From Escherichia phage EP_H11: a stretch of 64,000 nucleotides of DNA. The stretch's first letter is position 1; the number at the start of each line of letters is the position of its first letter. A model generated the notes under the pieces. The model did not search any database, was not told where the DNA came from, and was given only the letters and a program-made list of their open reading frames with translations. The translations under genes and the position numbers were made by a program. The DNA lies in sequence record OP688485; one strand, written 5' to 3'. This document shows, one piece after another, positions 2,766-55,421 of the stretch.

Positions 2766-3025
2766 TTAAGATGGTGGAAGTAACTCAATTCAATACTGTG
2801 GTGGTTAAGTCTGTAAACTTTCTATCCAGCATAGTGTATTACCCGAATCTTGGAATCTACGAAGTGGTCAAGCATCCTATGGGTGAGGCTAAGGTGGTAA
2901 TGTCAACCGAATCTGGTCGCTTCGCCAGAGAAATGGCTAAGGAGATAGACTCCTTCTTTAATTCTGCGATGGATGACTTCCTTGAGCTAACAGGCTGGTA
3001 TAGTCTTCCAGAACCGCTCCTTTGA
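2762..3025 (+). CDS. hypothetical protein
   Basis: ATGA start/stop overlap with the upstream ORF (translational coupling). Confidence 0.5.
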   Translation: MIKMVEVTQFNTVVVKSVNFLSSIVYYPNLGIYEVVKHPMGEAKVVMSTESGRFAREMAKEIDSFFNSAMDDFLELTGWYSLPEPLL

Positions 3026-3050
3026 GGCCTCCAAAGGCTGTTAAACTGTG
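3014..3050 (+). promoter_or_regulatory. class A conserved intergenic motif A1 (CCGCTCTTT-N-AAAGGCTGTTAA), candidate phage promoter
   Basis: ccgctcctttgaggcctccaaaggctgttaaactgtg; overlaps the upstream stop, ends about 30 nt before the ATG. Confidence 0.5.
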
Positions 3051-3079
3051 TGAGCTTATTTAACCTGACCGGAGAAATT

Positions 3080-5065
3080 ATGTCAGAACATGCTATTGAA
3101 ATCACAAGATTGCGTTACCCTGATAACGTTCGTCAGAACGTATCAATGTATCTCGGTGACCCGATTAACTACACCCATCCTCTCCAGGAAATAATCAATA
3201 ACGCAGAGGATGAGCTGCTTAATGGATATGCTAACCTGGTGCAGATCATTAACCGCGAAGCCTATAAGTTGGTTACCGATAACGGACGTGGTATTCCTAT
3301 CTACGCTGATCCGGAAGATCCAACTAAATCTATTCTGTTCTCCACTGTAACAGATCTGCATGCTGGCTCTAAGCTGGGTGATAACCGTGAAATCACTTCA
3401 GGTACTCACGGTGTAGGTAGCTCTGCTGTTAACGCAGTGTCCGAGAGATTCGTGGTGATCCGTCGAGTAATGCAGGGAGATAAGGCACACATCCCTATGG
3501 AGCCAGGTCAGTTCTATGTCCTCGGATTCCGTCGTGGTGTAATGGAAATTGATGGAGTGATCAACGATCTGAATGATCTTCGCGATGATGGCTTCCCAGA
3601 CGAAGTACTAGAGACGTTAATTGCTTCAGACTTCTCTACAGCAGTATTCATGGTTCCGGACGCCACTCTGTACCGCAGTATCTGGTCTGATGTGGACACA
3701 GTGCCTCTGAAGATCTCTCTGATTGGTCGCGACGCAACTATCACAGTTAATGGAGAAGCCTTACCTACCTGGGACTTCCGTCGTGATGTTGCAGAGAACG
3801 AGAAACTGTTCCTAGATACTACCGTCAAGTATGAGTTCTCGTTCAACGATCGTCTGACCTTCTCTGGTGAGTTGGGCTACTCAGATAAGAATATGTCCTA
3901 CTCCCATGTAGACATGATCAACTTGATCAATAACCCACATGGTGGTCTGCACGAGAAGCTGGTCACGAGAGCGCTCGGCGGTATGCTGAATAAAGTTAAC
4001 TCCGCTATCACTGTTGGTGATGCTAAGCTGGGATTGATCGTGTTCACTAACGTCTTCTCCAGCTACCGTACAGCATTCTCCTCTCAGACTAAGGAGAAGT
4101 TAACTGGCCTAGGTATGTCCTGGAGCGACTGGGAAATCATGGCTAAGAATAAGTTGATGCTGGATGATGAGCAAATCAACGATTACGACTATTATGGCGA
4201 GTACTTCTTCTACGAGAAGGAATGCCTGAGTCAGCTCACGTTTTACTTCAGCCTGGTCTACGAGAAGAATAAGCAGTTCTTCGATGCTCTGATTGCCAAG
4301 ATCCTGGCTTACAAAGCCAGCCTGAATAAACTCTCCAACATGGACTTCATTAAGTCTAAGCTGGTGATGGGTGATGATCACCGTAAGGCTGCTATGGATG
4401 GTGACATGGCTAAGATCTACGAATCTCCGTCTGATCGTTGGGATCTTCGTGAGCTCTTCATCACAGAAGGTCCGTCTGCATCTGGTAACATCATCAAGCT
4501 GCGTAACGAGTATCAGTCGGTGCTGCCGCTTCGTGGTAAGATGCGTAACTCAGCCTCCATGGATATTATGGAGTTCGTGAATAACCCAGAACTGCTGGCG
4601 ATCATTAACACTATCGGTTGCGGCATGGGTCAGATGTTTGACATCGATAAGGCACGTTACAGTAAGATCATCATAATGACAGACCTTGATGTGGATGGTC
4701 AGCACATCAGTAACCTTATCAGTTCAATCTTCCTTATCCATGCCCCAGAGCTGGTTAAGGATGGTCGTCTGTATAAACTTGAAGCTCCGTTCTATGTAGT
4801 TAAGAATGGTAAGAAGACCGAGTTCTACTACGCTGATGAGAAGGATAAGATCGACTTCGATAAGTGCTACGTTGAACGTCGTAAGGGGCTAGGGTCGTAT
4901 ACCGAGGAGGAAACCGAGCAGTTCATCATTAACTCGAAGACTCGCCGTCTTATCCAGGTAACCTATGATGATAATGAAGAGCATCTTGATGCCGCTCGTA
5001 AGTTGCTGTACTCATCTCGTGCTCGTCGCCAACTGTTAGAAGACTACGGTCTGTTTAAGGAGTAA
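3080..5065 (+). CDS. type II DNA topoisomerase large subunit (GyrB-like ATPase + TOPRIM; T4 gp39-like)
   Basis: GHKL ATPase N-terminus, TOPRIM motif IIMTDLDVDGQHI. Start trimmed from track position 3050 to the ATG at 3080, which has GGAG 5 nt upstream. Confidence 0.85.
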   Translation: MSEHAIEITRLRYPDNVRQNVSMYLGDPINYTHPLQEIINNAEDELLNGYANLVQIINREAYKLVTDNGRGIPIYADPEDPTKSILFSTVTDLHAGSKLGDNREITSGTHGVGSSAVNAVSERFVVIRRVMQGDKAHIPMEPGQFYVLGFRRGVMEIDGVINDLNDLRDDGFPDEVLETLIASDFSTAVFMVPDATLYRSIWSDVDTVPLKISLIGRDATITVNGEALPTWDFRRDVAENEKLFLDTTVKYEFSFNDRLTFSGELGYSDKNMSYSHVDMINLINNPHGGLHEKLVTRALGGMLNKVNSAITVGDAKLGLIVFTNVFSSYRTAFSSQTKEKLTGLGMSWSDWEIMAKNKLMLDDEQINDYDYYGEYFFYEKECLSQLTFYFSLVYEKNKQFFDALIAKILAYKASLNKLSNMDFIKSKLVMGDDHRKAAMDGDMAKIYESPSDRWDLRELFITEGPSASGNIIKLRNEYQSVLPLRGKMRNSASMDIMEFVNNPELLAIINTIGCGMGQMFDIDKARYSKIIIMTDLDVDGQHISNLISSIFLIHAPELVKDGRLYKLEAPFYVVKNGKKTEFYYADEKDKIDFDKCYVERRKGLGSYTEEETEQFIINSKTRRLIQVTYDDNEEHLDAARKLLYSSRARRQLLEDYGLFKE

Positions 5066-5067
5066 TT

Positions 5068-54311: not shown

Positions 54312-54346
54312 CCGCCGTTTCTTACCCTCGAAAGGCTGTTAAATTG
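54312..54346 (+). promoter_or_regulatory. class A motif A15
   Basis: ccgccgtttcttaccctcgaaaggctgttaaattg. Confidence 0.5.
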
Positions 54347-54373
54347 TTGCACCTCAACTAATAAGGATAACCG

Positions 54374-55087
54374 ATGTCTACTAAGATGATGCCACACCAT
54401 CTGGCACCGAATAAACTGTTTAACCGATTCCTGTCATATCATGACTCCTATCACTGCGCAATCGACATCGAGACTGAGTATCTCGATTTTAAAGAGCCTG
54501 GGGTAGTTCTGTCTGTAGGTATGGTAACGATCGGTCCAGAGCATTACTCCCACGTTTATTTTACTATTGATCGTGAAGAATCTCTGGCATTGGGTATGAA
54601 GTCCGACCCTAAAGTAGTGGAGTGGCTCAATACCCTCCCGAAACCCGTCCGTGATGCCGCATATGCTAATCCGGTATCTGTTGACGAAGCTCTGGATATC
54701 ATCGAGGATTACGTAGCTAAGGTATTACAGGACACTGGCTGCGAGATGTTGAACTTTATCGGTAACGCACCGGAGTTCGACCAAGGATTCCTGGATTGGT
54801 ACTTTAAGGCCAAAGGGCGTAAGACTCCGTTCCTTCACTGGATGAATCGTGACTTCCGCACTCTGGCTAGTCTGCAGCTAATCTCTTTCGATGAACGCCG
54901 CATGATTAAAGAAGAACTGCGTAGCCAGCACGAATCTATGTCTGACCACCATGCTCTGTTTGATGCTATGCTGGAAGCTAAGACCTGGGTTCGCACCATC
55001 AACCGAGTAAAAGAACTGCAGGATCTGGAGCATGAAGTAAACACCATGATCGCTCTGCAGGGTAATTCTGTTGAGGATGAAGAGTAA
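54374..55087 (+). CDS. DEDDh-type 3'-5' exonuclease (DnaQ-like)
   Basis: Exo I motif CAIDIETEY and Exo III motif HHALFDA. Confidence 0.6.
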   Translation: MSTKMMPHHLAPNKLFNRFLSYHDSYHCAIDIETEYLDFKEPGVVLSVGMVTIGPEHYSHVYFTIDREESLALGMKSDPKVVEWLNTLPKPVRDAAYANPVSVDEALDIIEDYVAKVLQDTGCEMLNFIGNAPEFDQGFLDWYFKAKGRKTPFLHWMNRDFRTLASLQLISFDERRMIKEELRSQHESMSDHHALFDAMLEAKTWVRTINRVKELQDLEHEVNTMIALQGNSVEDEE

Positions 55088-55400
55088 GCTCTGCCGCGTA
55101 GTTAATATACGTACCAATCCTAATTATGATCTGTATGTTGGGAGAGGTACGTTATTCGGGAATAAGTGGAGCCATAAAGATTTACCTAACGCTATCAATG
55201 TAGGTTCCCGAACATTAGCTATCGCGAAATACCGACTATGGTTCCACCAGCAAGTAAAAGATGGCCATATAAGCATCTCATACCTGCGGACTCTGAAGGG
55301 TAAGACTCTGGGATGCTCCTGCTTACCATTACCATGTCATGCTCAAGTAATAGCTGACTTCGTTAATTCATTACCAGACGAAGACTCCGCTCTTTCGTAG
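55077..55400 (+). CDS. hypothetical protein (DUF4326-like, CxC...CH motif)
   Basis: YVGRG...FGNKW and LGCSCLPLPCH motif; family recalled from memory only. Confidence 0.35.
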   Translation: MKSKLCRVVNIRTNPNYDLYVGRGTLFGNKWSHKDLPNAINVGSRTLAIAKYRLWFHQQVKDGHISISYLRTLKGKTLGCSCLPLPCHAQVIADFVNSLPDEDSALS

Positions 55401-55421
55401 CCTCCAAAGGCTGTTAAACTG
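55387..55421 (+). promoter_or_regulatory. class A motif A16
   Basis: ccgctctttcgtagcctccaaaggctgttaaactg; overlaps the upstream stop. Confidence 0.5.

Follow-up and report, generated by a model that had tools for sequence, protein, structure and literature searches.

A two-block intergenic element in Escherichia phage EP_H11 as a candidate phage-specific promoter family

In phages that encode their own RNA polymerase (RNAP), early operons are preceded by a conserved motif that turned out to be the early promoter, and their late promoters, T-3ATG+1 in phiKZ and A-11ACA-N6-U-1R+1 in AR9, combine a T at -1 with a purine at +1 (PMC7598289). In YerA41, the genes for polymerase subunits are early ones, and the subunits were detected in preparations of virions (PMC7354516). 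Almost unstudied for transcription is the phage clade comprising IME392, Ab1-TPeters, RP13, the Rhizobium RHph phages and Vibrio 1.031.O (and, more distantly, YerA41 and Carin-5), which combines hypermodified thymidine with a bacterial-type, often split, gene for the polymerase subunit beta'. Here, we analyse a stretch of 64,000 nucleotides from a phage of this kind, Escherichia phage EP_H11 (sequence record OP688485; hereafter the window), which is ~95% identical, in reverse orientation, to Escherichia phage vB_EcoM_IME392 (MH719082, 116,460 bp). Our subject is class A, an element repeated in the intergenic gaps of the window, which a first-pass annotation had attributed to phage-specific promoters. 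This is still the best-supported explanation, even though what was said at the time about sigma-70 and about anti-termination needs correcting. On balance, class A would be a set of promoters belonging to the phage itself, which serve the non-structural arm of its genome from the early phase onward and are read by phage-encoded machinery. That class A is a promoter is well supported by its sequence and placement; that its reading enzyme is phage-encoded is what we infer.

Class A has the form CCGCTCTTTt-N9-AAAGGCTGTTAA-NN-TGT, that is, a core (AAAGGCTGTTAA) preceded by a block (CCGCTCTTT, hereafter block 1), the two blocks spanning 36-45 bp. As first annotated, the window holds exactly 16 copies, the first starting at 3014 and the TG of the last ending at 55421, all of which are intergenic and on the + strand, which is the coding strand in every case. 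The core occurs 14 times exactly and twice with one mismatch at the last base, always on the + strand; when up to two mismatches are allowed, there are 21 matches versus 4.75 +/- 2.5 in shuffled sequence, and a strict two-block pattern gives seven versus none. A position weight matrix (PWM), which was built from 25 non-redundant copies and controlled with 20 shuffles, picks out exactly 16 sites in the window with scores of 37.7-61.1 bits, while the next best site scores -13.4 and the shuffle maximum is -4.1. Aligned on the core, the copies yield a gap-free extended consensus, aa..CCGCtcTTTt.a.g..tcgAAAGGCTGTTAAa.TGT.ggAg, in which the initial 'aa' corresponds to the TAA stop codon of the upstream gene, and information content drops to ~0 from 12 bp downstream of the core onward. 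The element, previously thought to measure ~35 bp, is indeed conserved but longer (~41-45 bp), and the spacing between the two blocks is not N9-13 but fixed, with no indels in 25 copies, the impression of a variable spacing being due to the ambiguous edge of the T-run. An overlap with the upstream stop codon, described as frequent, is seen in 5/16 copies, while 8/16 start 0-8 nt past this codon and 3/16 start 26-47 nt past it, two of these three coming after a hairpin. As for the next start codon, which had been placed 18-30 nt downstream, 11 of the 16 copies have it 18-32 nt past the conserved G.

How does this element compare with its closest described counterparts? Like the early promoters of phiKZ, AR9 and phiR1-37, which are read by a virion RNAP, class A is a single conserved motif, oriented with transcription and recognisable from sequence alone, in front of early operons in a phage with beta'-like genes. 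However, the motifs in these phages are AT-rich cores of ~10 nt centred at -10, whereas class A extends over 36-45 bp in two blocks that also contain G and C. Furthermore, these are jumbo phages with two polymerase sets, whereas the phage studied here is 116 kb in size and has a single beta' set, a beta' that is much closer to its bacterial counterpart (~31% identity) and a thymidine hypermodification pathway. Promoters of the T7 group are also long near-identical repeats that run through the start into a G-rich transcribed region and come in related classes (T7 class II/III), but class A is a two-block element with a variable spacer, and no gene for a single-subunit polymerase was found among the ~40 window open reading frames (ORFs) scanned. 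Class A would be of a kind already known from RNAP-encoding phages, a conserved early-operon motif, and has so far gone undescribed: the motif string was not found by full-text search of available papers, and an exact-core scan of IMG/VR returned only single-copy stretches among the matches listed, which were taken as chance matches.

Genes in the window are on the + strand up to ~59.6 kb, after which the end of the structural/lysis arm converges on the - strand. The + strand arm encodes topoisomerase II, helicases, DNA polymerase, ligase, thymidylate synthase, dUTPase and dCTP deaminase, together with a thymidine hypermodification set consisting of a 5-hydroxymethyl-deoxyuridine (5-hmdU) DNA kinase, glycosyltransferases, a methyltransferase and a PIG-L deacetylase. 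The complete IME392 genome has 25 copies of class A (at record positions 2092-61181 and 108153-113344), all of which are on the non-structural arm and on the coding strand, while its 42-kb structural arm has none. Copies are densest at the start of the arm, a region of IME392 that is beyond the window, where nine are found in 11 kb, including a tandem pair 58 bp apart, and the first of all is ~170 bp from where this arm and the structural genes diverge. To judge by an ungapped comparison of the 16 orthologous pairs in the window and IME392, class A is under purifying selection, with 0.5% substitutions per site in the core, 2.5% in block 1 and 2.8% in the spacer, versus 8-14% in the flanks. In each 20-kb third of positions 1-60000 of the window, sites resembling the sigma-70 consensus promoter fall short of their number in shuffled sequence (21, 23 and 28, versus 34.6, 35.6 and 43.7 expected), which suggests that phage DNA avoids them, and canonical sigma-70 promoter-like sites at the arm start are at chance level. 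Since such sites are depleted or at chance level, class A is the only candidate start signal there, and no canonical sigma-70 promoter was found alongside its copies.

The element is not restricted to these two phages. A tblastn search with beta' lists relatives that share this gene, namely Ab1-TPeters (38%), RP13, Vibrio 1.031.O, the Rhizobium RHph phages, Va2, YerA41 and Carin-5, and a metagenomic contig from a Logan assembly (L013) encodes proteins ~58% identical to those of the window. In the Logan contig, class A is found in orthologous gaps, that is, after the hmdU kinase gene, after the thymidylate synthase gene, before the DNA polymerase gene and before the homologue of a 483-aa gene. 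Its core, CTAAAAGGCTGTTAAnnTG, is identical at three of these four sites and has one T-to-C change at the fourth, while block 1 is degenerate or missing. Acinetobacter phage Ab1-TPeters has ~19 copies of aAAa[CG]CTGTT(T)AAnnTG, exclusively in its non-structural arm, with two different upstream halves (AACTCAAAATTGA and CCTGTyTCTTAA). Ralstonia phage RP13 has eight intergenic copies of ACrrCkCTAT-N10-rrACCTTGTnAG-N3-G (upstream block ACGACTCTAT), and the version in Vibrio phage 1.031.O is wwmCCyTTGC-N4-TG. The layout of class A therefore persists in phages of four host genera while its sequence drifts, which is what a phage-encoded reader predicts, whereas no such drift would be expected of a host sigma-70 -10 element. 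Within Ab1-TPeters (L005, 2956-49297), the core also forms two subclasses, one of which has a -35-like TTGAC and an extra T in the core (CTGTTTAA), and the two may differ in timing or in the factor that reads them. YerA41 was considered as a guide to temporal classes and set aside, as its genome has 31% GC and its annotated 'sigma-70 promoters' form no class A-like family.

The next-best matches of the class A PWM correspond to a second, paralogous and promoter-like element, class B, which is longer (~110 bp). There are five + strand copies of it in the window, at 2205-2290, 24960-25075, 28798-28904, 33000-33125 and 36516-36640 (cores at 2263, 25019, 28843, 33058 and 36556, respectively), with the consensus ATTTTTCAAATAAaCGAtTTtTG-N9-TAAAGCCCGTTCTTTTGGGTGGGGCG followed by a GC hairpin and then, in most copies, by ATAATCTAATTTGGAG and ATG. 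Class B clusters in the polymerase and small-gene region (25-37 kb) and is conserved in the Logan contig, RP13 and Vibrio phage 1.031.O. The copy at 28798..28904 (+) precedes a 218-aa gene and the gene for the N-terminal half of beta', and a class B copy also precedes the latter gene in the Logan contig and RP13. The two classes align base for base, sharing CG at -18/-17, the T-run, AAAG at 0-3, C at 5, GTT at 7-9, T at 14 and G at 15. What is kept in nearly all copies, of both classes and in all five genomes, is a pyrimidine-G step at a fixed distance, which is shifted by +1 in one Ab1-TPeters subclass and by -1 in the Vibrio phage. Multisubunit polymerases usually prefer a pyrimidine at -1 and a purine at +1. 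Considering this preference, the conservation of the step in both classes and the precedent of phiKZ and AR9, we propose that transcription would start at the invariant G (base 16 when the first A of the core is counted as base 1), with the pyrimidine at -1 and G at +1. This would put CTGTTAA at ~-10 to -4, AAAGG at -15 to -11 and block 1 at ~-34 to -25, and would give leaders of 18-32 nt carrying a Shine-Dalgarno sequence. The Shine-Dalgarno sequences of the closest-packed copies are consistent with such a start: in the first IME392 copy, GGAGG begins 3 nt past the G and would be truncated by a start 5-6 nt further on. Provided that the invariant G is the start, and only then, class A resembles the late promoters read by the non-virion RNAP of AR9 and phiKZ, which have a pyrimidine at -1, G at +1 and a fixed distance to a ~-10 element. 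Even so, their upstream element is AACA as opposed to CTGTTAA here, and class A is far longer and predictable from sequence.

The promoter reading thus stems from the strict strandedness of class A, its intergenic location, the short leaders, the restriction to one arm, the dense and tandem copies at the start of this arm, selection, and a layout that is kept while the sequence drifts. Each copy would act as one DNA signal in fixed register, composed of the block CCGCTCTTTt, a 9-bp spacer of variable sequence and the invariant core AAAGGCTGTTAA followed by NN-T-G, which would be recognised by a split bacterial-type beta' polymerase together with a specificity factor. The candidate reader is encoded on the + strand, the C-terminal half of beta' (26582..28096; Rpb1 domains 3-5) preceding the N-terminal half (29676..31244; Rpb1 domains 1-2, E 3e-23), the latter being present in a single copy in the whole IME392 genome as judged by tblastn. 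Within this polymerase region (22571-32897), the two halves are found beside conserved ORFs of 483, 230 and 218 aa, at 23475, 28105 and 29004, respectively, which are candidate partners of beta'. The 218-aa gene is directly upstream of the beta' N-half gene in the window, the Logan contig and Ab1-TPeters, while the 483-aa ORF, which has few homologues and only a weak match to Rpb2_3 (E 0.09), is kept beside the beta' genes in Ab1-TPeters and the Logan contig. The phage polymerase may be complete or may borrow host subunits.

Several points weigh against phage-specific promoters read in this way. There is a bootstrapping problem in that the polymerase genes themselves come after class A and class B elements, so that the polymerase would have to arrive with the virion, or else the host enzyme would have to fire these promoters weakly at first. 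An injected enzyme would be possible in view of the virion-associated polymerase subunits of YerA41. Moreover, no beta subunit and no sigma-like protein were identified in the phage. For beta, searches by tblastn or phmmer with the YerA41 protein as query gave no match, and Pfam scans of the large unknown ORFs of relatives were empty. For sigma, no candidate emerged when ~40 ORFs, taken from the window and from the capsid-sheath region of IME392, were scanned with Pfam, and a protein with a sigma-70 region 4 (Sigma70_r4) that is encoded by the Vibrio relative has no homologue detectable in this phage by tblastn or phmmer. YerA41 reportedly encodes a sigma. The AlphaFold model of the 218-aa protein (predicted local distance difference test score 62) has no significant fold match in the PDB, and four candidate proteins gave no PDB sequence match. 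Copies A4 and A7 directly precede terminator-like hairpins inside what would be their leaders, which is odd for a simple promoter. Finally, the sequence TGTTAAnnT is formally an extended -10, with T-12, A-11 and the TG at -15/-14 in 25/25 copies and T-7 in 24/25, and the Logan contig and the c2 subclass of Ab1-TPeters keep it, so that the host holoenzyme may be able to use these versions as well as those of the E. coli phages.

This last point is the basis for the strongest competitor, in which class A copies are host sigma-70 promoters with TGTTAAnnT as extended -10 and a start ~6-7 nt past the T, while AAAGGC and block 1 (then at ~-40 to -31) either are bound by an activator, made by the phage or injected, as in the sigma appropriation of T4 MotA/AsiA, or do no more than make the promoter stronger. 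We regard this as unlikely, albeit worth serious attention. The first-pass annotation, which had found no resemblance to sigma-70 promoters, was right in that there is no -35, but it missed the match to the extended -10 TGnTAnnnT in 24/25 copies. Also in keeping with host promoters are a purine-rich 'gAg' at +20/+21, where a sigma-70 start would fall, the fact that no sigma or beta was found in the phage, and the presence of the host enzyme at time zero, which solves the bootstrapping problem. The likeness to sigma-70 extended -10 and T4 middle promoters is real (TGnTAAnnT, no -35 and an accompanying phage-specific upstream element), but it is lost in the Ralstonia and Vibrio versions and in class B. 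RP13 copies keep T-12 in only 2/8 and T-7 in 5/8, the Vibrio version is without the A-11 register, and class B, which is in the same register, has a C at the A-11 position. A-11, T-7 and T-12 are therefore not the conserved feature across these versions, which is why we down-weight host sigma-70. In addition, block 1 is ~3 bp too far upstream to serve as a -35, the upstream block is at ~-40 to -31 rather than at -30 as in T4 middle promoters, the invariant 6-bp AAAGGC beside TG is left unexplained, and a start at +21 would cut the GGAGG Shine-Dalgarno sequence of the first copy in the arm. Nor is the core a MotA-box analogue, since there is no conserved -10 11-13 bp downstream of it, and no MotA or AsiA homologue was found among the ORFs scanned. 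The possibility that the core is itself a -35 or a MotA box was rejected because the place expected for a -10 shows no conservation and some start codons would leave too little room. The host sigma-70 holoenzyme on its own is thus a less likely reader than phage-encoded machinery.

Thymidine hypermodification may play a part in promoter recognition. The corresponding gene cluster occupies 6420-15958 in the window and includes a glycosyltransferase-like ORF, a methyltransferase, a PIG-L deacetylase, thymidylate synthase and a YfbR-like deoxynucleotidase, as well as the 5-hmdU DNA kinase gene (12422-13393). Owing to this cluster, the T-rich conserved promoter elements probably carry modified thymidines in virion DNA. 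A more ambitious, and rather improbable, version of the promoter reading is that the two paralogous classes A and B drive the whole non-structural programme through a single virion-delivered, bacterial-type split-beta' polymerase with exchangeable non-sigma specificity subunits, and that modified thymidines are needed for the T-rich conserved elements (CTCTTT and CTGTT) to be recognised. If this were true, modified-thymidine recognition would let the phage tell its own DNA from that of the host, as AR9 does with uracil. More generally, the consensus, the predicted start base and the second class offer handles for (i) designing in vitro templates, (ii) baiting the polymerase or its factor, (iii) testing the effect of the modification and (iv) engineering promoters, and class A makes transcription units annotatable in genomes of this clade.

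Rather than a start signal in DNA, class A might be a signal in the RNA of transcripts that were started upstream, either a nut-like anti-termination site, in which block 1 (CGCUCUUU) would be a boxA recruiting NusB/NusE, or a processing site. The first-pass annotation had left room for processing or anti-termination, and block 1 now gives this idea a concrete basis since, in 9/16 copies, it (CGCTCTTT) matches the boxA consensus (lambda boxA is CGCUCUUA and rrn boxA is UGCUCUUUA; PMC2724277). Downstream of the core, the sequence is GT-rich and similar to boxC. A4 and A7 are just upstream of terminator-like hairpins while A10 is part of one, much as lambda nut and rrn boxA sites precede terminators, and base pairing between the two blocks would be possible in 93% of cells. 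We nevertheless consider this very unlikely. When compared with boxA CGCUCUU(U)A, an exact CGCTCTT is found in 9/16 window copies, while the other seven break it at positions 4-6. The Logan contig, the closest of the relatives listed above, keeps the core (identical at 3/4 sites) with a degenerate or absent block 1, and the upstream blocks of RP13 and Ab1-TPeters are different. There is no boxB-like hairpin and no conserved boxB-type stem-loop, no Rfam match, and the RNAalifold consensus fold amounts to -0.48 kcal/mol with no covariation and no compensatory pairs. The first copy stands right where the arm begins and has no recognisable promoter ahead of it, several copies come after terminators, not before them, and tandem copies, or 25 copies per genome, are without precedent among nut sites. 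A hairpin between block 1 and the core, whether in RNA or in single-stranded DNA, was rejected as a conserved feature for similar reasons, that is, although pairing could occur in 93% of cells, there is no covariation, the energy is negligible and pairing is impossible in RP13. Least probable of all is an operator for a phage DNA-binding repressor or activator located beside promoters, for although the two blocks are ~21 bp (two helical turns) apart and weakly alike (GCTCTTT and GCTGTTA), and most promoters are shorter than this motif, the copies have no further conserved promoter element beside them, their strict alignment with the direction of transcription and their short, tight Shine-Dalgarno distance are traits of a promoter rather than of an operator, and the conserved pyrimidine-G step and G-rich downstream positions resemble a start site.

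Hairpins were reported between motif and start codon in A4, A9 and A13, all three of which are present, and a weaker one followed by a T-run can be added in A7. Likewise borne out is the finding that A10 contributes an arm to a terminator. Its core is the 5' arm of a 17-bp hairpin with a T-run (32908..32944, +), formed with an inverted copy of the core, which has the features of an intrinsic terminator and ends the RNA polymerase gene block. RNA reading through A10 folds to -28 kcal/mol (z -4.6), whereas RNA starting at 32921 folds only to -8.9. Since RNA begun at the proposed G of A10 is without the 5' arm, it cannot form the terminator, and so transcripts arriving from upstream would stop at A10 while newly started ones would pass, an arrangement that fits the promoter reading. 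Class A as a whole is not an intrinsic terminator, as A10 alone forms one, via a separate inverted copy, and the other 15 copies are without a partner arm.

All individual copies are on the + strand, and the G given for each is the proposed start. A1 (3014..3049, G 3048; 56.7 bits) overlaps the stop codon of ORF 2762-3025 and precedes the topoisomerase II genes. A2 (6363..6398, G 6397; 52.9 bits) is found after a terminator-like hairpin (6321-6342) and before a methyltransferase-like gene. The cores of A3 (7204..7239, G 7238; 43.5 bits) and A5 (11284..11319, G 11318; 37.7 bits) end in ...TTAG and ...TTAC, respectively. Between them, A4 (9545..9580, G 9579) is followed by a terminator-like leader hairpin (9592-9618; -24.1 kcal/mol, z -3.1). 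Copies with a counterpart at the orthologous site in the Logan contig include A6 (13420..13455, G 13454) after the 5-hmdU DNA kinase gene, A7 (15276..15311, G 15310; the top PWM score, 61.1 bits) after the thymidylate synthase gene, and A8 (18860..18895, G 18894) before the DNA polymerase gene. A9 (22461..22496, G 22495) has a structured 76-nt leader (z -2.2) and precedes the 303-aa and 483-aa genes that head the RNA polymerase region, at the other end of which is A10 (32887..32922), with its proposed G (32921) in the loop of the terminator. Further downstream, A11 (38048..38083, G 38082) precedes the DNA ligase gene, A12 (45005..45040, G 45039) has a GAGGAGG Shine-Dalgarno sequence starting 7 nt past the G, and A13 (50200..50235, G 50234) has a strong leader hairpin (z -3.4). 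Block 1 of A14 (51597..51632, G 51631; 45.2 bits) starts with ACGC, A15 (54312..54347, G 54346) is before an exoribonuclease-like gene, and A16 (55387..55422, G 55421; 56.9 bits) has a start codon 18 nt downstream.

Two further observations concern the vicinity of these copies. At the end of the polymerase operon, ORF 32054-32560 gives a borderline match to the anti-CBASS Acb1/2H-phosphoesterase family (27.5 bits in Pfam, for a cutoff of 27) and also matches the PHROG 'RNA ligase', which makes it a possible counter-defence gene. Between A13 and A14, the ORF map places no gene in a stretch of 692 bp (50670-51361). Rfam and tRNA scans of the whole window were both empty, and this stretch has no tRNA and no Rfam match even at E=1. 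Positions 50850-51330 nonetheless have a fold energy of -177.7 kcal/mol versus -150.1 in shuffles (z -4.2), and the stretch is a candidate for a structured non-coding RNA of unknown kind.

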